A stretch of 63,581 nt of DNA, the filler included. It is 9 parts of 9 records of this genome, joined end to end, with 100 filler letters (N's around TTAATTAATTAA, not from the genome) between each part and the next. Parts side by side here need not be neighbours in the genome. Positions count along the whole stretch, not along the records: positions 43,562 to 52,036 come from SRR20825010_6158; 8 more parts are not named here. One strand, written 5' to 3'. The notes beneath the pieces are model-generated. The model did no database searches. It had not been told where the DNA came from and saw nothing but the letters and a program-made list of their open reading frames with translations. Each line of letters begins with the position of its first letter. Within the stretch, counting starts at the first letter, position 1. The position numbers and the translations under genes are program-made. Positions 1,822 to 55,691 of this stretch are shown here, one piece after another.

Positions 1822-2808
1822 ATGACCAAGAAAAAACCACTTGTCGTCGTAACCCGGAAACTGCCGGAAGCGATCGAAACCCGCATGATGGAATTGTTTG
1901 ACGCGCGTTTGAATATCGATGATGCGCCAATGAGCAAGGCGGACCTTATCAATGCGGTCAAAGAGGCCGATGTTCTTGTGCCGACAGTGACGGACAGGAT
2001 CGATGCGGCTGTGCTTGCCCATGCGGGGCCGAACCTGCGTCTGATTGCCAATTTCGGGACGGGGGTTGACCATGTCGATCTTCAAACAGCCCGATCACGT
2101 GGCATTACCGTGACCAACACGCCAGATGTTTTGACAGAAGATACAGCCGACATGACCATGGCGCTGATCCTGTCGGTATCGCGCCGTCTGGCCGAAGGCG
2201 AACGGGTTATTCGCAAAGGCGATTGGGGCGGATGGGGCCCGACTTTGATGTTGGGGCACCGTATCTGGGGCAAGCGTCTTGGTATTGTTGGTATGGGGCG
2301 GATCGGCCGTGCCTTGGCGCGTCGCGCCAAAGGTTTCGGGTTATCAGTGCATTACCATAACCGCCGCCGCGTGCATCCGGATGCCGAAGAAGAACTTGAT
2401 GCAACCTATTGGGAAAGCCTTGATCAGATGCTGGCACATGTCGATGTGGTGTCGGTCAATTGCCCGCATACCCCGGCAACCTATCATTTGCTGTCAGCGC
2501 GCCGTTTGAAACTGATGCAGCCGCACGCGATTTTGGTCAATACAGCGCGTGGTGAAATCGTTGACGAACCTGCACTGACCCGGATGCTTGCTGATGGTGA
2601 AATCGCGGGCGCGGGGCTCGATGTGTTTGAGCACGAACCGGCCGTGAACCCGAAATTGCTTGAACTTCAAAACGCGGTATTGCTGCCGCATATGGGATCG
2701 GCGACGATTGAGGGGCGCGTTGATATGGGCGAGAAGGTCCTGATCAATATCAAAACCTTTGTCGACGGGCATACGCCACCAGACCGGGTGATTGAAGGGC
2801 TGCTCTAA
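1822..2808 (+). CDS. D-2-hydroxyacid dehydrogenase (glyoxylate/hydroxypyruvate reductase family)
   Basis: GIVGMGRIG Rossmann motif, NTARG, LDVFEHEP, LPHMGSAT catalytic motifs. Confidence 0.93.
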   Translation: MTKKKPLVVVTRKLPEAIETRMMELFDARLNIDDAPMSKADLINAVKEADVLVPTVTDRIDAAVLAHAGPNLRLIANFGTGVDHVDLQTARSRGITVTNTPDVLTEDTADMTMALILSVSRRLAEGERVIRKGDWGGWGPTLMLGHRIWGKRLGIVGMGRIGRALARRAKGFGLSVHYHNRRRVHPDAEEELDATYWESLDQMLAHVDVVSVNCPHTPATYHLLSARRLKLMQPHAILVNTARGEIVDEPALTRMLADGEIAGAGLDVFEHEPAVNPKLLELQNAVLLPHMGSATIEGRVDMGEKVLINIKTFVDGHTPPDRVIEGLL

Positions 2809-2830
2809 TACAGCCGTTTCGACAATTTCC

Positions 2831-2864
2831 AAAAGGGTGATACCAGCGGTGTCACCCTTTTTTT
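2831..2864 (+). terminator. Rho-independent terminator, probably bidirectional
   Basis: AAAAGGGTGATACC-AGC-GGTGTCACCCTTTT stem (one G-U pair) with T-run, 22 nt after the dehydrogenase stop. Confidence 0.8.
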
Positions 2865-2958
2865 GTTTCATACTCCCCAAATGCGGATGGTGCAGGAAAC
2901 CCGTTACGGGCATTTTCCCGGCGAACAAACCACTGTCACGATTTGGGAGGGCCCGTCC

Positions 2959-3363
2959 ATGTTCCATCGCGGAAATGTGCAACCAGTTTTAGCTGATTTC
3001 GACAATGTGCCTTTTCATGGCATCGCATCGTCCCTGAGTGCGCGCGAAGTGTTGCTCGAAGGACCATGTGTGGTGTCCGGGGTGCAAAATCTGAATGCTG
3101 AAGAATTGATTTTTGTTCTGTCAGGCAGTGTCGAAATCTGTGATGCAGATGGCGACAGTCTTGCCTGCGAGGACAACTGCATTTTGATCAAACCCCGTCA
3201 GCGCTATCATCTTCATATTACCTCAGAAGGCGAAGCAAAGCTTCTGACCATGACAGTACCGGCTTTCTGGGATGCCAGACAGATCGAAGATGCAAAAGCA
3301 GGGTTTAATGACAGGATCCTTAACTTGCTGGGATATGATAACCGTGATCCTGACAATTCCTGA
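2959..3363 (+). CDS. Cupin-fold hypothetical protein
   Basis: EELIFVLSGSVEI...ILIKPRQRYHL cupin pattern. GGGAGGG RBS precedes ATG 2959; the ORF-track start at 2863 overlaps the terminator tail. Confidence 0.6.
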   Translation: MFHRGNVQPVLADFDNVPFHGIASSLSAREVLLEGPCVVSGVQNLNAEELIFVLSGSVEICDADGDSLACEDNCILIKPRQRYHLHITSEGEAKLLTMTVPAFWDARQIEDAKAGFNDRILNLLGYDNRDPDNS

Positions 3364-3455
3364 CAGTAGATCAGGGATAAACAGCTTTCGGCATTTCTTT
3401 TTGCGTGTGGCTTGGCTATCACTAGTGCCAACAATTCCTGACATAGGGGGCCACC

Positions 3456-4405: not shown

Positions 4406-4505
4406 NNNNNNNNNNNNNNNNNNNNNNNNNNNNNNNNNNNNNNNNNNNNTTAATTAATTAANNNNNNNNNNNNNNNNNNNNNNNNNNNNNNNNNNNNNNN
4501 NNNNN
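4406..4505. other. Artificial contig spacer
   Basis: 44 N + TTAATTAATTAA (stop in all six frames) + 44 N; composition changes across it. Confidence 0.98.
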
Positions 4506-14226: not shown

Positions 14227-15552
14227 ATGGAGTATTTGCCCAATATCATATTTGCCGTGGCCCTTATTTTGGGTATTGGTTTTTTTGCCCGGAACGTAAA
14301 AAAGTTGTCCCGTAACATCAAACTAGGTAAAGATGTTGATGTAAGCGACAACAAATCAAAACGTTGGAAGAACATGGCAAGAATAGCCTTGGGCCAAACA
14401 AAAATGGTGGTACGTCCAATAGCGGGCATTATGCATGTGATCGTTTATGTGGGCTTTATCATCATCAATATCGAAGTACTGGAAATTATCCTCGATGGGC
14501 TTTTTGGAACCCACAGGTTATTTTCTCCCCTAGGTTCTATTTATGACTTTTTGATAGGCTCTTTTGAGGTATTGGCGCTTCTGGTCATTGTGGCCGTGGT
14601 GGTTTTTTGGATACGAAGGAACATCATCAGGATACAGCGTTTTATAAAACCTGAGATGAAAGGGTGGCCCAAAACAGATGGAAATATGATTCTGTACATT
14701 GAGTTTGTACTGATGATTTTGTTTCTCACCATGAACGCAGCCGATTTTCAGTTGCAGCAACTGGGTGCCGAGCATTATCACGAAGCAGGAGCATTTCCAG
14801 TAAGTCAATTTATTGTTCCAATTTTGGATGGGCTTTCCGAATCTTCCTTGATCTTGGTTGAAAGAACAGCATGGTGGTTACATATTTTAGGCATTTTGGC
14901 CTTTTTGAACTACCTGTATTACTCCAAACATTTACATATCCTTTTGGCATTTCCTAACACTTATTATGGTAAAGTGAAGCCACAAGGGCAGTTCAATAAT
15001 CTGGAATCGGTCACCAAGGAGGTCAAATTGATGATGGACCCTGATGCAGACCCTTATGCTGCTCCGGCCGAACAAGATACCGGCGAGCCGGAAAAATTTG
15101 GGGCATCCGATGTCATGGACCTAAACTGGGTGCAATTGCTCAATGCGTATACCTGTACCGAGTGTGGGCGATGTACATCAGAATGTCCGGCCAATCAAAC
15201 AGGTAAAAAACTATCACCCCGAAAAATAATGATGGATACCCGTGACCGGTTGGAGGAGGTGGGTAAAATCATGGATGCCAATAAAGGAGAGTTTGTTTCC
15301 GATGGCAAACAATTATTGAACGATTATATTACCCCGGAGGAACTATGGGCATGTACAACGTGTAATGCGTGCGTGCAGGCTTGTCCCGTGAGCATAGATC
15401 CATTGTCCATTATCGTGGAAATGCGTAGGTATTTGGTGATGGAACAGTCTGCGGCGCCTACCGAGTTGAACAATATGATGTCCAATATCGAAAACAACGG
15501 GGCCCCTTGGCCGTACAACCAAATGGACCGTCTAAACTGGGTAAACGAATAA
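14227..15552 (+). CDS. Membrane-bound Fe-S oxidoreductase (FadF/HdrD-like N-terminal half)
   Basis: Several TM helices with His residues (WWLH, SKHLHI); two ferredoxin motifs CTECGRCTSECP and CTTCNACVQACP. Confidence 0.88.
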   Translation: MEYLPNIIFAVALILGIGFFARNVKKLSRNIKLGKDVDVSDNKSKRWKNMARIALGQTKMVVRPIAGIMHVIVYVGFIIINIEVLEIILDGLFGTHRLFSPLGSIYDFLIGSFEVLALLVIVAVVVFWIRRNIIRIQRFIKPEMKGWPKTDGNMILYIEFVLMILFLTMNAADFQLQQLGAEHYHEAGAFPVSQFIVPILDGLSESSLILVERTAWWLHILGILAFLNYLYYSKHLHILLAFPNTYYGKVKPQGQFNNLESVTKEVKLMMDPDADPYAAPAEQDTGEPEKFGASDVMDLNWVQLLNAYTCTECGRCTSECPANQTGKKLSPRKIMMDTRDRLEEVGKIMDANKGEFVSDGKQLLNDYITPEELWACTTCNACVQACPVSIDPLSIIVEMRRYLVMEQSAAPTELNNMMSNIENNGAPWPYNQMDRLNWVNE

Positions 15553-43561: not shown

Positions 43562-43692
43562 ACATGACGCTGGAAACCGTCGCCGCCATTTGCGACACTG
43601 CACCAATGGACCCGGCGAAAATCGCCGCCCTGTAACTGCGGCCGAGCCAAGGCCGACGAGCAAAGTTATTCCAGTCCTCGGGACACTATCCC
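43562..43692 (+). mobile_element. Right end of an IS256-family element (transposase C-terminus plus terminal inverted repeat)
   Basis: 43564-43635 reads MTLETVAAICDTAPMDPAKIAAL*, resembling the YMTLET tail of alphaproteobacterial IS256 transposases; followed by AAGTTATTCCAGTCCTCGGGACACTATCC, an IS256-like end. Family call is from recalled similarity. Confidence 0.65.
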
Positions 43693-44087
43693 TGCTTTGC
43701 GGCAGCTTGCAGGTCCTCCATGCCGAAGGTCTAGAGCAGGCGCAGCACCTGAACATACTCGCGCCGCCCCATTTTCAGCATGCGCGCTTCCATGAGACGG
43801 CGCAGGGTTTGGAGCTCTTTAGGCAAATCCTACTCCGTCAAGGGCGCGGCTTGATCCAGGGCATTGATCTTGCGCTCGATAAGCGGAAGGTAGTGGGCCG
43901 GATCGAAGACCATGTCCTCGCGGTCGTAGCAGCGCGCATGCCGCGCAATGACATTGCCGTCGCAGCCTATCATCACCCGGTCGACGCAGGCGCGGGTCCA
44001 GACATCCTGATGCCCATAGGCGACCGGGACCGGGTAATCGTTGGTGTCGTAGCTCACGCGCAACTGCGAGTTGACCTTGCCGTTGGC
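43693..44087 (-). pseudogene. istA: IS21-family transposase (IstA) C-terminal fragment with in-frame stops
   Basis: One frame reads YDTNDYPVPVAYGHQDVW...HARCYDREDMVFDPAHYLPLIERKINALDQAAPLTE*DLPKELQTLRRLMEARMLKMGRREYVQVLRLL*TFG; TAG stops at 43830-43832 and 43731-43733. Confidence 0.85.
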
Positions 44088-44366: not shown

Positions 44367-45857
44367 CTACCAGTTCGCGTAGAATTTATCGACATGCGGA
44401 AAGAGGTCCGCTGCAAGCTGGACCCGAGATTGTTCGCAGATTTGTGGCGAACGGCCCAAACTGGCCGCGATCTCATCAAGTATCTGGTCGCGATCCACAT
44501 TCACGAACCGACCGTCCTTGAGGACGCTGCGACCGCCAATCAGCACCTGCAGCACAAACTCGGGCCGGGCGCGGCGCACCAGAACCTCAGCAAAAGGCCG
44601 CGTGGGGTCTTGCCAAGGATAGGTCAGCCGGGACCAATCCAGCAACACCAGATCGGCCTCGCAACCGACTTCCAGTCGTCCGACCCGGTCGGCAAAGGGC
44701 GTCGTCGCGGCGCCATATTCGGTCGCCATCTGCAGCACCTGCGCGGCCGACGGGGCCGGCGAGCTGTGCCCGGACGGCCGGTGCAGAGTCTGCACCAGCC
44801 GCATTTCCTGCATCATGTCGCGGTCGTCGTTTATACCCGCCTCATCAATGCCCATGGCGACCGGAACGCCAGAGGCAAGAAAGCCGTTGAGGTCGGCAGT
44901 TCCGCTTTTTAGCCGCAGATTGGACGAACAGTTGTGGCATAGACACACGCCGCGCTCAGCACAAAGTGCAAGGTCATCGGCGGTCATCCAGACGGCATGG
45001 CCCAGCGTGGTTTGCGGGCCCAGCAGTCCGAAACGATCCAGATGGGCAACGGCCGATCCGCCGGTGCGTTGGCGGGCGTATTCGACCTGATACGGAGTCT
45101 CGAGCAGGTGAATGTGCATAGGCGCGCCGGTTCGCCCGGACATCTCCGCCGCGCTTTCCAGCGCCGCATCCGACAGCCAGTGCAGGTTCGACGGGCCGAT
45201 CTGGATCGCAGTCATCGGATCCCCGGCATACCGGCTGCGTAGGGCGTCAAAGATGGCGACCTGGTCCGACAGGGGCAAGGCAAAGGCTCCAAGGTATTCC
45301 GCGGTGGGCGCACGCAGCGGTTCTGGCAACGTCGCCACAAAGTCCTGATCCGCCGCATAGACCAGCCGGTTTTGATCACGCAGGGCAAAGGAATAGGACA
45401 CCCGCATCCCAATCTCGGCGTAGGCCGAAAGGATCTCATCCGCCCGCCCCAGCACGCCCTCTGGTGTCCCCGGCGCACGCGCGTGCAGGTGCTGAACCGT
45501 CGTCACGCCAGAGGCGATCATCTCAAACGCTGAAAAAAGTGTGTCCAGTCGGGGCGCGACTTCACGCAGGCCGATCCGCGCCGCGATCCACAGTTCCAGC
45601 GGCAGATCAGGCACGCCCAGTTGGAATGGTGTCAGACCCACATGATGGTGGGCGTTGATCAGTCCGGGGATGACAACCTGTCCCGAACCCCCAATCCGTT
45701 CGGCATCGGGGTGATCGCGGCGCAACGTCTCTGCCGGGCCGATGGCGGCAACCTTGCCGTCACGGATCAGCAGCGCGGCATCCTCTCGCAGGTCGGGGGT
45801 GTGGTCGGGTCCAAAGCCGACAAGGATGCGGTCGGCTATTACGAGCGTTTCGGTCAT
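44367..45857 (-). CDS. Metal-dependent amidohydrolase (SsnA/AtzA/guanine-deaminase-like)
   Basis: PGLINAHHH, HIHLLET (HxxE), LGHAVW, SNLRLKSG, GIDE, GRLEVG..ADL. Confidence 0.9.
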   Translation of the reverse strand: MTETLVIADRILVGFGPDHTPDLREDAALLIRDGKVAAIGPAETLRRDHPDAERIGGSGQVVIPGLINAHHHVGLTPFQLGVPDLPLELWIAARIGLREVAPRLDTLFSAFEMIASGVTTVQHLHARAPGTPEGVLGRADEILSAYAEIGMRVSYSFALRDQNRLVYAADQDFVATLPEPLRAPTAEYLGAFALPLSDQVAIFDALRSRYAGDPMTAIQIGPSNLHWLSDAALESAAEMSGRTGAPMHIHLLETPYQVEYARQRTGGSAVAHLDRFGLLGPQTTLGHAVWMTADDLALCAERGVCLCHNCSSNLRLKSGTADLNGFLASGVPVAMGIDEAGINDDRDMMQEMRLVQTLHRPSGHSSPAPSAAQVLQMATEYGAATTPFADRVGRLEVGCEADLVLLDWSRLTYPWQDPTRPFAEVLVRRARPEFVLQVLIGGRSVLKDGRFVNVDRDQILDEIAASLGRSPQICEQSRVQLAADLFPHVDKFYANW

Positions 45858-46513
45858 CCGGGAATTCCATCTGTATGAGCGGTTGCAAGCAGGCGGCGCA
45901 CCGCTGCGGGAACGGGTTCGATCAACGGCACTGGAGCGTCCGCCGAAATGGTGCGCGCTGCGACAGCCAGCGGCCCGCCGCCAATGATGATGGCTCCAAG
46001 CGCGCCGTCCCGTTCGGCCTCGGCACAGGCGCGCTGACAGGCCGCAAGCAAGGCATCCGTCAGCGCCGACGCATCGGACATAAGCTGCTGGGGATCGCCG
46101 GGAGTGACCCAGGTGCCTGCATACCCATCGTGACTGGCCCGCTGTGCGGCAAGGTCGATCCGCCCGACCAGTTGCGGCGTCGTCGTCACCACGGCAAAGC
46201 GAGGCGCGAGGGCGGCGGCCTCAGCGATCGACGCCTCTGCAAGGCCGGTGGCATGGGATAGCCCCGCGGCGCGCAGCTCCATCAGCCCCGGATCGCCGAA
46301 CCCAGCCACGATCACCGCGCCTGCAAGAGACGGTGCCAGCGCCGCGACGCGGATGGCGGCCGCGTCCAACGCATCGGGGTTCAAAATGGTCGGCGGGGCG
46401 TCCGGGATGGTCACGCCCTGGACAGTGACGCCGGGCGCGACCGAGCGGGCAATAGCAACCATCGCCTCTGTCACCGCGCGCGAACTGTTGGGATTAACCA
46501 GCGTGATTTTCAT
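45854..46513 (-). CDS. Asp/Glu/hydantoin racemase family protein lacking the catalytic cysteines
   Basis: MKITLVNPNSS..VT..M, AGFGDPG, GLAEAS, IIIGGGPL, VPLIEPV. Confidence 0.85.
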   Translation of the reverse strand: MKITLVNPNSSRAVTEAMVAIARSVAPGVTVQGVTIPDAPPTILNPDALDAAAIRVAALAPSLAGAVIVAGFGDPGLMELRAAGLSHATGLAEASIAEAAALAPRFAVVTTTPQLVGRIDLAAQRASHDGYAGTWVTPGDPQQLMSDASALTDALLAACQRACAEAERDGALGAIIIGGGPLAVAARTISADAPVPLIEPVPAAVRRLLATAHTDGIPG

Positions 46514-47421
46514 CGTGTGTTCCAGACCGGAAGATCCAGCCCTGCCCGCCAGGCATGTGCAATCTGGTCACGGCGCGCGATCCAGACATCGGGGTGGTTC
46601 AGAACATGGTCCAACACCTGTTCCAGTCCGCTGATCCGTGCCGGGCGCCCGATAATGCGCAGGTGCAGCCCGATGGACAGCATCCGTGGGGCGTGAGCGC
46701 TTTCGTCAAGCAGCCGGTCGAAGGCGGCGATGCAATAGCGTGAGAAGTCCTCGGCAAAGACAAAGCCGCCCCGATTGAAGAACCGCATGTCGTTGGTGTC
46801 AAAGGCATAGGGCAGCACCACATGCGGGCCATTCGGACCGGGGACAGTAAAGGGGATATCGTCGTTGTAAGCATTGCTGTCGTAAAGAAAGCCGCCGTTT
46901 TCCTGTAGCAGATCGCGCGTGCGCGGCGAGGTGGCAGAGCGGGTGTGCCAGCCGACCGGAGCCTCACCACAGGCCGCCGCAATCGCGTCGCTGCAATCGG
47001 CAATCGCCTTGCGCTCTTGCACGGCGTCCATGTGAACGTGACGCTCCCACCGATACCCATGAGCGGCGATCTCATGGCCGTCCGCGACGGCCTCCTGCGC
47101 AAGCCAGGGAAGGCGAGCGATTGCCCGTCCGCAGGCGTTCAGGGTCGCCGGGACACGACGATCCTGCAGCGCCTGCCGGATGCGCGGCCAGCCCGCGCGC
47201 GGGCCGTATTCAAAATGGCTTTCCATGCACAGGTCGATCTCACCCTCGACCGGCTCGACCGCCTCATAGATGAACTCGTTGCACTCATCCCCGTCGGCGA
47301 TTGACAGTTCTGCACCTTCCTCGACGTTGACGACAAACGATACGGCCAAGCCGGCCCCGTTCGGCCAGTGGCGCATGGGGGGCTGCCCCCCATGTCCGAT
47401 GAAGTCCCGCCGGTCAGTCAT
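46510..47421 (-). CDS. PuuE-like polysaccharide-deacetylase-fold (CE4) amidohydrolase
   Basis: WPNGAGLAVSFVVNVEEG, ESHFEYGPRAG, HEIAAHGYRW, YDSNAYNDDIP, DTNDMRF, SIGLHLRIIGRPAR. Confidence 0.88.
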   Translation of the reverse strand: MTDRRDFIGHGGQPPMRHWPNGAGLAVSFVVNVEEGAELSIADGDECNEFIYEAVEPVEGEIDLCMESHFEYGPRAGWPRIRQALQDRRVPATLNACGRAIARLPWLAQEAVADGHEIAAHGYRWERHVHMDAVQERKAIADCSDAIAAACGEAPVGWHTRSATSPRTRDLLQENGGFLYDSNAYNDDIPFTVPGPNGPHVVLPYAFDTNDMRFFNRGGFVFAEDFSRYCIAAFDRLLDESAHAPRMLSIGLHLRIIGRPARISGLEQVLDHVLNHPDVWIARRDQIAHAWRAGLDLPVWNTR

Positions 47422-48221
47422 GACGCAGCGGCGTCGACCAGCGCGCGGGTCAGCCCCGCGTCCCAGCGTAGCAGGTCGCCCTCGGCATAATCGGGGCGCA
47501 TCAGAGAGGAGGAGACGATCGCGCCATCCGCCGCCGCCAGCACGTCCTGCGCGTTCTGCGCCGTGACACTGCCGCCGATCAGGATTGGCCGTTTCACCCC
47601 GGCCCCCCGCGCCGCGCGGATGCGCGCTAAGCTGTCGGGCACGTCCGATCCGGTAATCACAAGCGCATCAGCACCATTATGCACCGCCGAAACTGCGGCG
47701 CGTTCAGGCGTGACGGCGATCGTCGGCACGCAGGTGCGGTCAAAGACGTCGGCCATGATTGCGACGTTGTCGGCCTGCAACCGGTGGCGATAGCTGACCG
47801 CCTCAACGGCAAGCGCCTCGCGGTGGCCCTCAAAGGTCATGGCCGCACCGACAAAAATCTTGAGACGGACGAAATCCGCGCCAGAGGCATGAGCAATGGC
47901 GATGGGCGCGCAAGCGTCATGAGCCTGCACGATGATGCCCAGACTCATCTCCGGAAAGGCCCGCTTCATCGTCCGTCCCAGCGCTGCGGTCAGTGCCACG
48001 GTTTCCGGCGCGGCTTCACCTTTTTGGCGAGTTTGATCCTGAAGGATCACATGGTCGATGCCTCCCGAAACCAACGCCTCAGTGTTGGCCAAGGTGTAGT
48101 CCTCGAGGAAGGCAGGGCTGAGATGGCGGCGCACCGACAGATCGGGCAAATGCAGGGCAGCCACAAGGAACGGCTTGCCGGGACGGGGCGACAGGCCGGG
48201 GTTTTGCGTGGTGTCGGTCAT
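47418..48221 (-). CDS. BtpA/SgcQ family TIM-barrel protein
   Basis: ALHLP, GGID..ILQD, IAHASGADFVR, IMADV, GADALVITG, LIGGSVT..N......ADGAIVSS. Confidence 0.85.
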   Translation of the reverse strand: MTDTTQNPGLSPRPGKPFLVAALHLPDLSVRRHLSPAFLEDYTLANTEALVSGGIDHVILQDQTRQKGEAAPETVALTAALGRTMKRAFPEMSLGIIVQAHDACAPIAIAHASGADFVRLKIFVGAAMTFEGHREALAVEAVSYRHRLQADNVAIMADVFDRTCVPTIAVTPERAAVSAVHNGADALVITGSDVPDSLARIRAARGAGVKRPILIGGSVTAQNAQDVLAAADGAIVSSSLMRPDYAEGDLLRWDAGLTRALVDAAAS

Positions 48222-49345
48222 GTGTGTGCGGTCTTTCCAGTCAGGTCGGGGTCGGCCAAAAGGTTCAGCCCGTCATCAAGGCGGAACAGGTGCAAGGCGG
48301 CCAGATCAAAGGCCAGCCGAAAGTCGCTGCCGGGCTGCGGCGCGGCGGCAGGAGCGACGCGCGCGACGATCTCGCGCTCCCCGGTCTTGAGAAAGACCAG
48401 AGTGTCGGACCCAAGTGGTTCAACCACGGATACCGGCAGCTCAAGCCAAGCAGAGTCGGTTCCCGGTTCGGGGGTTGCAGTGAAATGTTCGGGCCGTATG
48501 CCAAGGGTCATTTTGCCACCTGCCGACGCCTCCCGTTCAACCGCATCGCGGTATCGGGCGGGGATCGGAATCCGTGCGCCCGATTCAAGTTCCAGCATCC
48601 CGTCCACGGCAGTCACCGGGATCAAGTTCATCGGCGGCGCGCCCATGAACGCGGCGACAAATCGGCTGCGCGGTTGGTTGTAGATTTCGTCAGGAGTGCC
48701 CAGTTGCTCGATCCGCCCGCCGTTCAACACGACGATCTGATCGGCAAGAGTCATTGCCTCAACCTGATCATGGGTCACATAGACGACCGTGGTCTTCAAC
48801 TGACCATGCAACCGCTTGATTTCCGTGCGCATCTCGGCGCGCAGCTTGGCGTCAAGGTTGGACAGTGGTTCATCGAACAGGAACGCTTTGGGGTCGCGCA
48901 CGATGGCGCGGCCCATGGCGACCCGCTGGCGCTGACCGCCGGACAAATCGCGGGGCCGCCGATCCAGCAGATGTTCGATCTGCAAAATTTCGGCCGCATC
49001 TTCGAGCCGTCGCTTGGCCTCGTCCTTGGGAACGCCGCGCATCTTGAGACCGAAGCCGATGTTTTCACGCACTTTCATGTGCGGGTAAAGCGCATAGTCC
49101 TGAAACACCATGGCCACGTCGCGGCCGCGCGGAGGGATGTCGTTGACCAGAACGCCGCCGATCTCGATCTCGCCCCCGCTGATCGTTTCCAGTCCCGCAA
49201 TCATCCGAAGCAAGGTGGATTTGCCACAGCCAGAGGGGCCGACGAACACCGTGAACGCCCCTTCGGGCACCTCTAGGTCGATGCCATGCACGACTTGCGT
49301 GGTGCCATAGCTTTTCGTGACGTTGCGCAGTTTCAGACCGGTCAT
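48218..49345 (-). CDS. Carbohydrate ABC transporter ATP-binding subunit (MalK/UgpC family)
   Basis: GPSGCGKST, VFQDYALYPHM, LSGGQRQR, FLFDEPLSNLD, YVTHDQVEA, LGIRPEH. Confidence 0.96.
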   Translation of the reverse strand: MTGLKLRNVTKSYGTTQVVHGIDLEVPEGAFTVFVGPSGCGKSTLLRMIAGLETISGGEIEIGGVLVNDIPPRGRDVAMVFQDYALYPHMKVRENIGFGLKMRGVPKDEAKRRLEDAAEILQIEHLLDRRPRDLSGGQRQRVAMGRAIVRDPKAFLFDEPLSNLDAKLRAEMRTEIKRLHGQLKTTVVYVTHDQVEAMTLADQIVVLNGGRIEQLGTPDEIYNQPRSRFVAAFMGAPPMNLIPVTAVDGMLELESGARIPIPARYRDAVEREASAGGKMTLGIRPEHFTATPEPGTDSAWLELPVSVVEPLGSDTLVFLKTGEREIVARVAPAAAPQPGSDFRLAFDLAALHLFRLDDGLNLLADPDLTGKTAHT

Positions 49346-50820
49346 GATGAGAACTCCGCGAAACGATCATCGGAAATGCGCGACGACGACGCGCTCCAGA
49401 ACCCCTCGGGAGGTTCCATAAAGGGCGCAAGCCCAGCGCGCTCAACGATGCGCTCGGACTCGCGTTCGGCGCGGGCCTGGATCGCGCGAGCATCGACAAC
49501 CTCCGGGCAGCGATTTTCCATTAGCACACGGCCATCCACTACAACGTGATCCACATCCTGCCCCGCCGCCTGGTGCACGACCCGGTGGACCGCCATGTAC
49601 ATTGGCGTCAAATGCGGACGCAGACCTCCGCCAAGGGTAATCACGTCGGCCTTTTTACCGACTTCCAGCGAGCCGATGTCACTGTCCATCCCAAGCGCCT
49701 TGGCGGCATCGATCGTCGCCATCTCCAGCAGCTTTCCGGTCGGCATGACGGAACTGTCCTGAAAATGGTTCTGTTGCAGGCGCATAGCGACGCGCAGGTT
49801 CGGCAGCAGATCAAAGCTGGTGCGCGGCGAGGTGCCATCGGTGGTGATCGCCACGTTCGCGCCGGCCTCGATCAGTTCGACAACCGGACAGCGCGCCCGC
49901 CCCATCGACCCGGCCAGCGGCGCGTGGCCCACCGAGGTGCCGGTGTCCGCGATGATGCGCACCTCGTCGATACCCAGCCCGGTACAGTGCTGTACAAGCA
50001 CATCCGGCCCAAGCAACCCGTTGGGATCGCGGCTTGCCAGCCGCACCATGCCGCCAAAGGCGTCCGAATGGATGCGCACCCCATGTTCACGCGCGGATTC
50101 GCGGATCCGGCGCGATTGCATCAGGTCGTGATCGGTCAGGCGCGCCTTATCGGCGGGGGTCGGGCCGGAACTGTCGCAGGACGGCACAATCAGAAAGGGC
50201 GTCAACATCACCCGGATGCGGTCATTCGCACCGCCGTGCCAGTCGCGGATAACCTGCTCGGCGCCGGTCATTGCGTCCTCAAAGGTGAACGGCGCGTCAT
50301 GTGGGATGCCGTCGCGCCACTGGGTGGCGGGCCGGGGGTAGGGCGGATTGCAGGGTCCGGTCGCCACGATTTCACGCAGGCCAGCCTCTGCATAAGAGGC
50401 GGCATGGGCCCCGGCCAGCGCAGGATCGTCACTGCGCGGTTCGGATGCGATGACGCACAGGCCAGTGGTTACGCCGAACATCAACCGCTCCAGCGCCGAA
50501 AGCTGGCCCTCCGCCGACCAGAAATCGGTATCGGTATGATGGTAATAGGTGCGCGTCACCACTTTGCCCCAGAACGACGGCGTGTCCGAGGCGACCGTCT
50601 TGAGCAGGCCATGCCCGCCGTGGCCGTGGGCATCCACCAGACCGGGCAGGATGATGCCGCCGTCAGCCTCAAGCACCCTTGAGGCGTCTTGGGGACCGGT
50701 GGCGGCGGGTCCGACATATGTGATGCGCCCGTCGCTGACCGCGACGCTTGCGTCGGGGATGATGCGGCGGTCTTGGTCCATCGTAACGACGGTTCCGCCG
50801 CGGATCAGGAGATCGGTCAT
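49342..50820 (-). CDS. Metal-dependent amidohydrolase (MtaD/SsnA-like, divergent active site)
   Basis: MTDLLIRGG start (ATGA overlap at 50817-50820), PGLVDAHGH, RIHSD, VQHC, ITTDG, GSLEVGKKAD. Confidence 0.88.
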   Translation of the reverse strand: MTDLLIRGGTVVTMDQDRRIIPDASVAVSDGRITYVGPAATGPQDASRVLEADGGIILPGLVDAHGHGGHGLLKTVASDTPSFWGKVVTRTYYHHTDTDFWSAEGQLSALERLMFGVTTGLCVIASEPRSDDPALAGAHAASYAEAGLREIVATGPCNPPYPRPATQWRDGIPHDAPFTFEDAMTGAEQVIRDWHGGANDRIRVMLTPFLIVPSCDSSGPTPADKARLTDHDLMQSRRIRESAREHGVRIHSDAFGGMVRLASRDPNGLLGPDVLVQHCTGLGIDEVRIIADTGTSVGHAPLAGSMGRARCPVVELIEAGANVAITTDGTSPRTSFDLLPNLRVAMRLQQNHFQDSSVMPTGKLLEMATIDAAKALGMDSDIGSLEVGKKADVITLGGGLRPHLTPMYMAVHRVVHQAAGQDVDHVVVDGRVLMENRCPEVVDARAIQARAERESERIVERAGLAPFMEPPEGFWSASSSRISDDRFAEFSS

Positions 50821-51854
50821 CGGGAAAACTCCGGCAGGGTGTTGAAACCAATCGCGCGGTGGCGGCGCGCGATCTCGTCGGGGGTGGCGGTCAGGGCATG
50901 CAGGGCACCAAAGCCCCCAACCGCGAAAGAGGCAGAAACGGTGCCGCAGGCCGCAGCATGGCGGACGTCCCGCCCCGCCAGGTATCCGGCCGCAAAGCCG
51001 CCGCAAAATGCATCACCTGCACCGACCGGATCGGGGGCATCGACCTCCAGCGCCGGAACATGAACGATCCGGTCCGTATCACGGTCCAGCAGCAGCGCGC
51101 CCTCTGCGCCGATCTTGACGGCCAGAACCGCAGACGTGGTCCGGCCCAGATCCATTAGGGCCGCAGCGGGCGAAAGGCCCGGACGCATCGCCGCAAGTTC
51201 CTTTTGGCTGGGAAGAAAGATGTCGACCTGTCCTGCCAGCGTCTCGACTTCGCGCGGGGATTGGGCACCCGACGACCCGGGATCAAGCGACAGGATCGCC
51301 CCGCGCGCCCGGAACGCGGCGATCAAGTCAGCCTGTGCCGACAAATTTTCGGGGGCGAGATGCACGATGCGCGGTCCGGGCGCCGCCCGCAGCGCTTGAT
51401 CGACCGACACCGGGTAGAGTTGGCGTAGTGCGCCAAAGCCAAGCCCCTCAGGGGTGCGCGTCTGCAGGCGGGAGAGAAACCGCGCGCGATCCTCGGCATC
51501 CAACGGCTCGGCAAAGCCGAACGCTTGGAACACTTGGGATGGCGCATACAGATGATCGACACGCGATCCGTCGGCGTTGTTCAGGAACCACTCAGTCTCG
51601 CTAACCTCTTCGGGCGCACGATCGATCCCGTCGCAGCCGATGCCGGCCGCGCGCAGCCGGTCTAGCAGCGCGTCGGGGTAATTTGCCGCGACATTGCCCG
51701 CCAGCGCCACCCGGTCAGACCAGAGTCGGGCGCCGACCGCCGAATAGACGGCATTGCCGCCCATCTGTTCCAGCGACACGCGCCCGTCGGCGGTGATCAC
51801 GCTGTCGCGGATCACCCCCCCGGTCGTCAGGATATGTGCATCGGTATCGGTCAT
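50817..51854 (-). CDS. PfkB/ribokinase family carbohydrate kinase
   Basis: MGGNAVYSAVG, LSLDP, FLPSQKE, VKIGAEG, DPVGAGDAFCGGF. Confidence 0.92.
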   Translation of the reverse strand: MTDTDAHILTTGGVIRDSVITADGRVSLEQMGGNAVYSAVGARLWSDRVALAGNVAANYPDALLDRLRAAGIGCDGIDRAPEEVSETEWFLNNADGSRVDHLYAPSQVFQAFGFAEPLDAEDRARFLSRLQTRTPEGLGFGALRQLYPVSVDQALRAAPGPRIVHLAPENLSAQADLIAAFRARGAILSLDPGSSGAQSPREVETLAGQVDIFLPSQKELAAMRPGLSPAAALMDLGRTTSAVLAVKIGAEGALLLDRDTDRIVHVPALEVDAPDPVGAGDAFCGGFAAGYLAGRDVRHAAACGTVSASFAVGGFGALHALTATPDEIARRHRAIGFNTLPEFSR

Positions 51855-52036
51855 GTCGCCTGAAGGTGGCCCGGATACCCGAGGTTGCGGGCGAACCGCG
51901 CCTCGGCAAAGTGATAGGCCACGAGGTGCAGCGGCACAGAATAAACCAGCGGCGCCAGAGCGTCGTCGACCTGCGGCATCCGCCAGCTGTGGGCGATGCG
52001 GCTGTCGATCTCGTCATCGGGCCCCGGAATCAGAGC
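51851..52036 (-). CDS. SIS-domain (GlmS/FrlB/AgaS-like) protein, C-terminal 61 aa; absent from the ORF track
   Basis: My translation: ALIPGPDDEIDSRIAHSWRMPQVDDALAPLVYSVPLHLVAYHFAEARFARNLGYPGHLQAT*; aligns by eye with glmS in this window (MPEVNEIVAPILYALPVQLIAYH); stop overlaps the kinase ATG. Confidence 0.7.
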   Translation of the reverse strand, partial: ALIPGPDDEIDSRIAHSWRMPQVDDALAPLVYSVPLHLVAYHFAEARFARNLGYPGHLQAT

Positions 52037-53969: not shown

Positions 53970-54854
53970 ATGGCGCTACTCGAACTTAAAAACGTATGCA
54001 AGTCTTATGGTATGGGTGCTTCGAAAGTCGATGTGCTTTCGGATATTAACCTTTCTGTGGAAGAAGGTGAATTTGTAGCCATTGTGGGCTTTTCGGGGAG
54101 CGGAAAAACCACCTTGATCAACATGATCAATGGACTTGACTTCCCTGACAAAGGAGAAGTGTCACTTCATGGCGAACCGATTACCGGACCGGGTCCGGAT
54201 CGCGGGGTAATCTTTCAGAACTACTCACTCCTGCCTTGGCTTTCGGTTTATAAAAATGTAAAACTTTCGGTTGACGAGGTTTTCCCTGAGTTAACCAAAA
54301 AGGAAAAGGACGCACATATCCGTAAATACATCGGTATGGTGAACCTCACTCCTGCCATCGACAAAATGCCCTCTGAGCTATCCGGTGGCATGCGCCAACG
54401 GGTGTCTGTGGCAAGAGCTTTGGCAATGAATCCGGAGGTATTGCTGATGGATGAACCACTTAGTGCGCTGGATGCATTGACGCGTGGATCGCTGCAGGAA
54501 GAAATTGTCCGGATCTGGAGTCAGGATAAAAAAACGGCTATCCTCATCACCAACGACGTAGATGAAGGAATCCTGATGGCCGATCGCATCATTCCTTTGA
54601 CACTTGGGCCAAAGGCAACTTTGGGCCCGGAATTCAAAGTAAACTTCGAACGACCAAGGATTGTGACAGAGATCAACAAAGATTCGAATTACAAAAAACT
54701 CAGAAACAACATCCTGGAATACCTGATGGAAATCGGGACAACACGAAGACAAACCAGTGATCAGAAATACATTCTTCCAGACCTGAAGCCGAGCATGCCC
54801 GGACGTGTGTTTTTCGGAAGAAAAAAGAAGAGTGAGAAAGTCAACTATTTCTAA
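53970..54854 (+). CDS. Nitrate-type ABC ATP-binding subunit 1
   Basis: [45 protein letters not shown]. Confidence 0.92.
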
Positions 54855-54872
54855 TCACCAAAGACGAAGACA

Positions 54873-55691
54873 ATGGAAGCAGTTTTAAAAAAAGAAATTC
54901 AAATCAACCCCCATCTGGAAAACAAACCTGAGATGTTGGTGTGTAAAGACCTTCGCAAGGTTTACCCAACACCAAAGGGAGACTATGTCGTACTCGACAA
55001 ACTTCAGTTGAGCATTCGGCAAGGGGAATTTGTTTCGATCATTGGTCATTCGGGTTGTGGCAAATCGACTTTGCTCACCATGATTGCCGGATTGAATGAA
55101 ATAAGCGGCGGGAAGGTACTGGTGGATCGTGAGGAAATCCGTGGAGCCGGGCCAGACCGTGCCGTGGTATTTCAATCCCCCAGTCTATTGCCGTGGCTTA
55201 CAGCCATGCAAAACGTGATGATTGGCGTGAAGCAGGTTTTCCCCGGAGCATCAAAGGCAGAGAAGGAAGAAATCTGCAAGTATTATCTGGACAAAGTTGG
55301 TTTGGGAAATGATTTCCATAAAAAGGCCACTTCCCTTTCGCAGGGCATGCAACAGCGTGTGGGTATTGCCCGGGCTTTTGCTTTAAAACCAAAAATCCTG
55401 CTTCTTGATGAACCGTTTGGAATGCTGGACTCACTGACAAGAGGCGAACTTCAAGATGTCCTTTTGGAAATATGGCAAAAGGAGAAAATCACTGCGGTGG
55501 CTATCACCCACGATGTAGATGAATCCATCTTCCTCGCCGATCGGGTGATTATGATGACAAGTGGTCCTTATGCCAAAATCGGGGATGAGCTGGTCATTCC
55601 TTTCGAGCGACCAAGAAACAGAAAGGATGTATTGGAGCATCCGGATTACTACGATTACAGGGGTTATCTCATTGATTTCCTGAATCATTAA
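54873..55691 (+). CDS. Nitrate-type ABC ATP-binding subunit 2
   Basis: GHSGCGKST, LSQGMQQR, LLLDEPFGMLD, ITHDVDE. Confidence 0.92.
   Translation: MEAVLKKEIQINPHLENKPEMLVCKDLRKVYPTPKGDYVVLDKLQLSIRQGEFVSIIGHSGCGKSTLLTMIAGLNEISGGKVLVDREEIRGAGPDRAVVFQSPSLLPWLTAMQNVMIGVKQVFPGASKAEKEEICKYYLDKVGLGNDFHKKATSLSQGMQQRVGIARAFALKPKILLLDEPFGMLDSLTRGELQDVLLEIWQKEKITAVAITHDVDESIFLADRVIMMTSGPYAKIGDELVIPFERPRNRKDVLEHPDYYDYRGYLIDFLNH

Follow-up and report, generated by a model that had tools for sequence, protein, structure and literature searches.

A cluster of eight genes on the minus strand of a single contig (positions 43562 to 52036) in the DNA that we analyzed, a stretch of 63581 nucleotides (nt; positions 1 to 63581) that we call the window, may be a mobile catabolic operon for an imported N-substituted sugar. 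The substrate could be a ketosamine, a glycosylamine, or an N-modified aminosugar, with a cyclic amide or amidine as its nitrogenous part; we hold this reading tentatively, with slightly less than even confidence. In related loci from other genomes, a PfkB-family kinase, a GlmS/FrlB-like SIS protein, and a protein of the BtpA/SgcQ family form a conserved triad next to an ATP-binding cassette (ABC) importer. Frequently attached to this triad is a hydrolase module, which consists of a paralog of the PuuE allantoinase, a racemase-fold protein that lacks the catalytic cysteines, and a deaminase-type amidohydrolase that we call AH2.

The window is made up of nine contigs joined at N...TTAATTAATTAA...N spacers (at 4406, 22002, 27725, 31724, 43462, 52037, 56412, and 59968), and position 52036 is therefore a true contig end. 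The GC content of the nine contigs ranges from 38% to 65%, which suggests a mixed or poorly binned assembly. The operon contig is 8475 bp long and has a GC content of 64.2%, and those of the neighboring contigs are 38% and 46%; it probably comes from an organism other than that of its low-GC neighbors in the window.

On its minus strand, the operon contig has seven complete open reading frames (ORFs) plus one that is open to the contig end. This last is the 3′ end, 61 codons and the stop, of a GlmS/FrlB-like double-SIS gene (51851..52036). It is followed by genes for a PfkB-family sugar or nucleoside kinase of 345 amino acids (aa) (50817..51854); an AtzA/TrzA/SsnA-like amidohydrolase, AH1, of 492 aa (49342..50820), for which we use an ATG start that lies within a longer, TTG-started ORF; a MalK/UgpC-type ABC transporter ATPase of 375 aa (48218..49345); a BtpA/SgcQ-family phosphate-binding TIM barrel of 267 aa (47418..48221); a PuuE-like cyclic-amide hydrolase paralog of 303 aa with the polysaccharide-deacetylase fold (46510..47421); an Asp/Glu/hydantoin-racemase-fold protein of 219 aa without the two catalytic cysteines (45854..46513); and AH2, of 496 aa, which resembles TRZ/ATZ, methylthioadenosine/S-adenosylhomocysteine (MTA/SAH), and 8-oxoguanine deaminases (44367..45857).

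A reading of this DNA made without database searches (the sequence-only reading) had described eight genes on one strand joined by seven 4-nt overlaps. This description was accurate: each of the seven junctions reads TCAT on the plus strand and thus ATGA in the coding direction, with the eighth gene cut by the contig end. Third-position GC is between 0.71 and 0.80 in all eight frames and homologs exist for each frame, which marks them as genuine genes rather than chance ORFs. We found no promoter-like sites in the operon, and the terminator-like sites, 7 versus 5.7 ± 2.4 in shuffled sequences, were not enriched; both results fit a single transcription unit. Thus, the eight genes look like one translationally coupled unit. 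None of the other contigs in the window carries the genes missing upstream. Downstream of the operon, at 43689..44087 on the minus strand, lies the remnant of a transposase C terminus with in-frame stops, in which a stretch of 85 aa matches PF22483 (Mu-transpos_C_2; E = 1.4e-19). The remnant probably accounts for the assembly break in this region, and it hints at mobility.

Families were assigned with Pfam and NCBIfam models, and we call a protein an equivalog only if it passes the curated NCBIfam cutoff. These models agree with every family name that had been given from the sequence alone, and among the operon proteins only the UgpC/MalK-type ATPase scores above an equivalog cutoff (NF008653, UgpC subfamily, 498.3 bits against 432). 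The ATPase also has the ABC_tran, OB_MalK, and TOBE_2 domains and belongs to the MalK/UgpC type.

To see how widely the cluster occurs, we searched for BtpA and found 481 proteins among 8000 candidates scored, mostly in Alphaproteobacteria. An alignment-based profile scan limited to a single genome for each species yielded 253 candidates; 168 of these proved to be relatives, and the 80 best serve here as loci, the counts below being per 80 loci. These loci carry flanks of up to 10 kb, and several are short contigs. Genes were counted by tblastn with the window proteins and additional proteins from loci L001, L007, and L040, at a query coverage of at least 50%. The hosts are Alpha- and Betaproteobacteria plus a few Chloroflexia and Acidobacteria contigs from metagenome-assembled genomes (MAGs).

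In 65 loci, both a PfkB and a SIS gene are found no more than 3.5 kb from BtpA. The PuuE paralog is present at 60% identity or more in 51 loci, a second PuuE paralog in 43, AH2 at 55% identity or more in 45, and the racemase homolog at 45% identity or more in 34. The full set of PfkB, SIS, PuuE paralog, racemase homolog, and AH2 occurs in 28 loci. The proposal that these genes form a conserved unit was thus borne out by the synteny check. A binding protein resembling PotD/PhnS is found in 49 loci (L007, for example, has two, at 748-1833 and 1888-2937) and one of the CUT1 type in 3. AH1, at 50% or more in both identity and coverage, is found in just three (L001, L028, and L077). DeoR regulators are present in 38 loci, and their best NCBIfam match is AgaR (158.9 bits). 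DeoR-type regulators usually sense sugar phosphates, and we count their presence in favor of the N-substituted-sugar reading.

Two layouts recur. In type A, carried for example by Aureimonas, Skermanella, Ancylobacter, Paracoccus, and several Betaproteobacteria, the order is two PotD/PhnS-like binding proteins, SIS1, PfkB1, ATPase, two permeases, SIS2, PfkB2, BtpA, PuuE1, PuuE2, racemase homolog, and AH2. In type B, carried for example by many Rhodobacterales and by Devosia, a divergent transporter and a DeoR gene precede SIS2-PfkB2-BtpA-PuuE1-PuuE2-racemase homolog-AH2. The SIS1/PfkB1 pair of the type A loci (for example, L007, 2942-4953) is a second, divergent pair upstream of the transporter ATPase; it is present in many loci, and it suggests either two sugar-handling steps or two related substrates.

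The window layout is shared only with L001 among the 80 loci, and partly with L028 and L077. L001, from a Paracoccaceae MAG, has the gene order of the window, with 63 to 81% identity per protein; six of its seven junctions are ATGA, and the seventh is TTGA by ORF call. Its upstream genes encode a binding protein of the SBP_bac_1 (CUT1) type (2050-3414), two permeases, and a complete double-SIS protein of 376 aa. The sequence-only reading had placed the permeases, binding protein, and regulator beyond the contig end of the window; L001 supports this for the transporter genes, but we found no regulator gene in L001. The L001 cluster lies between a transposase gene of the IS66 family and a fragment of a Tn3 transposase (1-1236 and 14519-15346), in agreement with the transposase remnant of the window. 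AH1 and the operon-internal ATPase belong to a rare, transposase-flanked layout. Across 401 genomes sampled from the class to which G002 (the source of L001) belongs, only 3, G002 itself included, had the racemase homolog. Horizontal spread is suggested by this sparse distribution, by the transposase flanks, and by the range of hosts, which come from several phyla. The nearest comparison genome, G001, had no BtpA relative, and no DNA match in it was found to the operon contig or to the contig at 31824-43461.

Within the triad, the kinase is a PfkB-family member by its PF00294 score (81.3 bits against a gathering score of 25.8). Its translation contains DPVGAGD, in which we take GAGD to be the C-terminal anion-hole motif that defines PfkB carbohydrate kinases. 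It reached no NCBIfam equivalog cutoff (the FrlD model gave 35.2 bits against 247), and it had low-scoring matches to nucleoside, adenosine, and ribose-1-phosphate kinases. Orthologs of 35 to 63% identity lie immediately upstream of BtpA in most loci.

The 61-aa SIS fragment in the window matches only the C terminus of GlmS models and is 80% identical to the C terminus of the full double-SIS protein in L001. SIS orthologs score 102 to 123 bits against models of the GlmS isomerase domain, 33 to 57 against NagB-II, and 27 to 31 against FrlB; the FrlB equivalog cutoff (NF008481, 430 bits) was reached by neither L001 (27.5 bits) nor L007 (30.7 bits). The SIS proteins of the clusters are 17 to 20% identical to E. 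coli FrlB. A Glu and a His separated by 16 residues occupy the same alignment columns in all seven full-length SIS proteins compared (E. coli FrlB, L001, two from L007, L046, L057, and L041). For the window this result rests on the L001 ortholog, because the window gene is cut before the dyad region. According to PMC10285752, the catalytic Glu and His are exactly 16 residues apart in both FrlB (E224/H240) and GlmS (E488/H504), and mutagenesis showed the pair to be essential in FrlB/FraB. The suggestion that the kinase and SIS genes follow the kinase/deglycase logic of FrlD and FrlB therefore holds in part: the PfkB-SIS pairing is there and the orthologs keep the dyad, but the SIS protein is nearer GlmS than FrlB.

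The third member of the triad, BtpA, belongs to PF03437 (91.7 bits against a gathering score of 30). It falls below the cutoffs of TIGR00259 (97.5 bits against 153.4) and of the photosystem I BtpA equivalog (84.5 against 400), and by these scores we regard it as a distinct subfamily of PF03437. We found no solved sequence relative. An AlphaFold model built with 24 sequences had a pLDDT of 92, and Foldseek together with an exhaustive VIA search returned a flat list of phosphate-binding (β/α)8 enzymes (Z of 16 to 20, 9 to 21% identity): thiamin-phosphate synthase (ThiE), hexulose-phosphate synthase (HPS), 2-keto-3-deoxy-6-phosphogluconate and -galactonate (KDPG/KDPGal) aldolases, ribulose-phosphate epimerase (RPE), TrpA/C/F, HisA/F, and N-acetylmannosamine-6-phosphate (ManNAc-6-P) epimerase. 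The predicted fold supports a phosphorylated substrate without pinning down a reaction. The barrel lining includes the invariant polar residues H24, D62, H101, D102, R119, K121, D158, D161, R162, and D185. The position of this subfamily beside a sugar kinase and a GlmS/FrlB-like SIS protein in 65 of the 80 loci points to a phosphosugar-amine as its substrate. A Protein Atlas look-up returned only BtpA-named clusters, and in open PubMed Central papers and bioRxiv preprints, the scope of all our literature searches, we found no enzymatic reaction for the BtpA/SgcQ family.

More distant BtpA genes were also seen in similar company. On M. huakuii pMHb (L081, 5996-14505), a distant paralog of 37% identity is in a GntR-kinase-SIS-BtpA unit that is followed by a BMP-family (nucleoside-type) ABC importer; such paralogs, with a kinase and SIS beside a BMP importer, we count in favor of the N-substituted-sugar reading. 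On A. vitis pAtS4e, the neighbors of BtpA are a ribokinase on one side and a Zn hydrolase on the other. In further loci, BtpA, SIS, and PfkB occur together with importers of the Dpp or ECF type and with other amidohydrolases, and L057 has a Bmp gene near BtpA. A Chloroflexia MAG contig (L052, 9962-11818) has two adjacent BtpA-family genes, the second of which is a more typical PF03437 member (260 bits).

In the hydrolase module, the PuuE-like protein (Polysacc_deac_1) scores 292.1 bits against TIGR03212, below the cutoff of 424.6 for PuuE allantoinase. It aligns over its full length with solved PuuE (3cl6) and its P. aeruginosa homolog (1z7a), with E values of 1.4e-80 and 2.6e-82, respectively, over residues 5 to 293, and its score against the sugar deacetylase model NodB is 36 bits. 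Mean column identity over 24 orthologs is 81%. In two of three relatives searched, a genuine PuuE is encoded elsewhere in the genome (521.5 bits in G002 and 542 bits in G004), and the cluster copies of G002 and G004 score 254 to 304 bits. Judged by these scores, the cluster gene is a paralog of true PuuE, so that the earlier description of it as PuuE-like stands for full-length similarity but not for identity with the housekeeping enzyme. In a Rhodoferax MAG (L029, 7153-8049), the match to the PuuE paralog has one in-frame stop, which could reflect a pseudogene or a sequencing error.

The racemase-fold protein belongs to PF01177 (Asp_Glu_race; 100.6 bits) and has no NCBIfam match. When it is aligned to K. 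pneumoniae allantoin racemase (3qvj; the double Cys-to-Ser form is 3qvk), both catalytic Cys positions are Gly. Both cysteines are absent in all 35 orthologs, with Ala or Gly at the first position and Gly at the second. In PMC12661438, Cys79 and Cys184 of this enzyme (KpAllR) are described as catalytic and as conserved across the racemase superfamily. Their loss excludes the racemization mechanism of the family and makes ureide racemization unlikely; the idea that this protein acts as a ureide racemase is thus not supported. The pocket residues NPN, D74, E93/E98, TTT110-112, and GGGP are nevertheless invariant, which argues that the protein is under selection for another role. No Cys-less member of the racemase family was found described in the papers and preprints searched. 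A predicted complex of this protein with the PuuE paralog scored 0.00 in two runs, made without controls, a score that speaks neither for nor against an interaction.

Both amidohydrolases belong to PF01979. AH2 scores 142.6 bits, and its best equivalog score is 191 bits against a cutoff of 540. Its best solved relatives are 4dyk, 4gbd, and 4f0r (E values of 1e-38 to 1e-41), and the nearest solved group is that of the MTA/SAH- and 8-oxoguanine-type deaminases (E values of about 1e-41 to 1e-30); its NCBIfam and solved relatives include MTA/SAH, 5′-deoxyadenosine, and 8-oxoguanine deaminases, all below cutoff. The translation has HxH- and HxxE-like strings of the kind expected in amidohydrolases of this group, where strands 1, 5, 6, and 8 carry the catalytic acid and the metal ligands. 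AH1 scores 97 bits; its best equivalog score is 200 bits against 609, and its best solved relative is AtzA (4v1x; E = 3e-42). The metal/acid motif of AH1 on strand 5 (β-5) is ambiguous, with the alignment differing when made against AtzA or against AH2.

From these assignments the following pathway can be proposed. The compound would be imported by a CUT1-type binding protein and two permeases, driven by the MalK-type ATPase of the operon, and its sugar would be phosphorylated by PfkB. BtpA would isomerize or epimerize the resulting phosphosugar-amine into a form that the SIS enzyme accepts, and the SIS enzyme would use its Glu/His dyad to break the sugar C-N link, giving a central sugar phosphate and an amine or ammonia. 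Before or after this split, the PuuE paralog may open a ring resembling a hydantoin or a lactam, and amidine or amide groups may be hydrolyzed by AH1 and AH2. The Cys-less racemase-fold protein would probably bind the ring compound, or it may carry out a different chemistry. That the substrate is a purine- or ureide-like nucleoside or a glycation adduct, as the sequence-only reading had it, is pure inference. A more specific version, which we regard as a long shot, is that PfkB, BtpA, and SIS achieve N-glycoside cleavage without a glycosidase: BtpA would perform a TrpF/HisA-like Amadori rearrangement (or an epimerization) of a glycosylamine phosphate to a ketosamine phosphate, which the SIS deglycase would hydrolyze. 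The aglycone would then be of the hydantoin or guanidino-hydantoin type, as in oxidized purine nucleosides or glycosyl-ureides; its deimination would fall to AH2 and its ring opening to the PuuE paralogs, and the Cys-less protein would be a noncatalytic ring-binding subunit. If this route is true, it would be the first reaction for the BtpA/SgcQ family.

Several results weigh against an operon for an N-substituted sugar with a ring-like nitrogenous part. No enzyme of the cluster reaches an equivalog cutoff, and the chemical steps and the substrate are deduced from family membership only. The fold search gave no function-specific match for BtpA, the matches being flat across many barrel enzymes. 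Some loci, such as L072 and L035, have only the transporter, SIS, PfkB, and BtpA followed by unrelated genes, and L014 and L023 are similar with AH2 upstream; the hydrolase module is thus dispensable. The two transporter types, CUT1 in 3 loci and PotD/PhnS-like in 49, suggest more than one substrate. The SIS protein may be an aminosugar deaminase just as well as a deglycase, because its GlmS score of 102 bits against 27.5 for FrlB makes deamination of an aminosugar phosphate equally possible. This last point leads to an unlikely competitor, a route like those for Aga and glucosamine (GlcN), in which the amidohydrolases and the PuuE paralog remove the N-substituent from an N-acylated, N-carbamoylated, or N-amidinated aminosugar, PfkB phosphorylates an aminosugar or a ketose 6-phosphate, SIS is a deaminase/isomerase like AgaS, GlmD, or NagB-II, and BtpA is an aldolase or epimerase feeding glycolysis. 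The order of the SIS scores (GlmS, then NagB-II, then FrlB), the AgaR-like DeoR regulators, the polysaccharide-deacetylase fold of the PuuE paralog, and the presence of KDPG/KDPGal aldolases, HPS, and ManNAc-6-P epimerase among the structural neighbors of BtpA would all agree with it. However, the PuuE paralog is far nearer to PuuE than to NodB (292 versus 36 bits), the amidohydrolases match the TRZ/ATZ and deaminase groups and not NagA/AgaA, the cluster has no glycosidase, and the hydantoin-racemase-fold protein is left without an explanation.

Catabolism or salvage of a modified nucleoside is, in our judgment, improbable. Here PfkB would be a nucleoside kinase, AH2 would deaminate an adenine- or guanine-like base, the PuuE paralog would open an oxidized (hydantoin-type) base, and BtpA and SIS would process a ribosylamine phosphate. 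The MTA/SAH, 5′-deoxyadenosine, and 8-oxoguanine deaminases among the relatives of AH2 and the low-scoring nucleoside, adenosine, and ribose-1-phosphate kinase matches of PfkB fit such a route, as do the distant kinase-SIS-BtpA triad beside a BMP importer on pMHb and the Bmp gene in L057. Phosphoribosylanthranilate (PRA) isomerase and HisA, which carry out Amadori rearrangements on ribosylamines, are also among the structural neighbors of BtpA, but BtpA matches the folds of TrpF/HisA no better than it matches the aldolases. Moreover, all of the supporting similarities are far below family cutoffs, the binding proteins of the clusters are CUT1 or PotD/PhnS-like and not BMP, and no nucleosidase or phosphorylase is present in the cluster. 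It is still less probable that the cluster is two independent neighboring modules that act on different compounds, a sugar-phosphate module (transporter, SIS, PfkB, and BtpA) and a ureide or heterocycle module (PuuE paralogs, racemase-fold protein, and AH2). Several loci do have the triad without the hydrolase module (L019, L020, L024, L035, L037, and L072), and in Bosea-type loci AH2 and PuuE2 are beyond the transporter, on mixed strands. Against this, the operons of the window and of L001 join genes of both modules through 4-nt overlaps, and AH1 and the ATPase are inserted between PfkB and BtpA; both modules are present in 28 of the 80 loci, mostly in the same order and on the same strand; and the loci that carry both have no second transporter. 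The last alternative, that the cluster is an already described pathway, namely standard allantoin/purine, fructoselysine/fructose-asparagine, or Ti-plasmid Amadori-opine use, shares its protein families with the cluster and is very improbable. All of the equivalog scores are far below cutoff, those for PuuE, FrlD, and FrlB included, and the SIS identity to E. coli FrlB is low. Genuine PuuE is encoded elsewhere in G002 and G004 (521 and 542 bits), the racemase-fold protein lacks the catalytic cysteines, and neither the contig nor L001 has genes for degrading allantoate or ureidoglycolate. In a tblastn search of 72,556 plasmids, SIS matched 12 records, all at 33% identity or less and none from Agrobacterium or Rhizobium, and the plasmid matches of BtpA were all below 40% identity, so that nothing ties the cluster to known opine plasmids. 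The family scores and the plasmid searches effectively exclude a standard allantoin, fructoselysine, or opine pathway.

Among known systems, the closest in operation are the Frl/Fra fructosamine systems (E. coli frlABCD-frlR, B. subtilis frlBONMD-frlP, and Salmonella fraBDAE); the cluster does not belong to those equivalog families. It shares with them a kinase of the PfkB family, an importer, and a double-SIS protein of the GlmS-like type whose Glu and His are spaced by 16 residues. Further counterparts are the extra TIM-barrel enzyme of E. coli frl, the epimerase FrlC, and an amide hydrolase in Salmonella fra that acts on the amine part. Unlike Frl/Fra, the cluster has SIS and kinase proteins that are far below the FrlB and FrlD cutoffs, a barrel that is BtpA and not of the FrlC type, three or four extra hydrolase-type genes, and a DeoR-type regulator rather than FrlR. 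According to the abstract of PMC12632257, the B. subtilis system takes up its substrate through an ABC type I importer whose ATPase, FrlP, is encoded separately; its transporter/kinase/SIS logic is the same.

The allantoin branch (PuuE with HpxA/AllR) is similar in that a PuuE-fold hydrolase, alignable over its full length, adjoins a hydantoin-racemase-fold protein. In contrast to that branch, the proteins here are below the PuuE cutoff and without the catalytic cysteines of KpAllR, no downstream allantoate enzymes are present, and the genes are embedded in a sugar kinase/SIS operon. The aga and GlcN pathways (AgaS/NagB-II/GlmD and AgaR) share with the cluster a GlmS-isomerase-like SIS protein, a sugar kinase, an N-deacylase step of the amidohydrolase type, and a DeoR/AgaR-like repressor, but the cluster has no phosphotransferase system and no class II aldolase, its amidohydrolases are of the TRZ/ATZ-deaminase type instead of NagA/AgaA, and its scores are below the cutoffs. 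SgcQ of E. coli sgc, which is also in a sugar-uptake operon, and cyanobacterial BtpA belong to the same Pfam family, PF03437, as the window protein but are unlike it in that the latter is below the TIGR00259 and photosystem I BtpA cutoffs. We found no description of the cluster in the main texts of the papers and preprints searched, in agreement with the earlier impression that the combination matches no described pathway; among those on glycosylamines, Amadori compounds, and deglycases, only the Frl/Fra papers dealt with pathways of this type.

The BtpA/SgcQ family (PF03437) is widespread and has been named only from a photosystem-biogenesis phenotype and an uncharacterized E. coli operon; the cluster makes the function of the family directly testable in culturable carriers, such as Ancylobacter tetraedralis DSM 5895, Aureimonas sp. 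Leaf324, Aurantimonas sp. Leaf443, and Skermanella or Paracoccus isolates. Further leads are the racemase-fold protein, strongly conserved and minus both catalytic cysteines, and the PuuE paralogs, which differ from the housekeeping allantoinase. Should the substrate be found, the cluster would represent a new route that yields nitrogen and carbon in soil, leaf, freshwater, and marine Proteobacteria.

Elsewhere in the window, a low-GC neighboring contig carries two ABC ATPase genes on the plus strand (53970-55691) that are 34 to 37% identical to the operon ATPase and unrelated to the operon.

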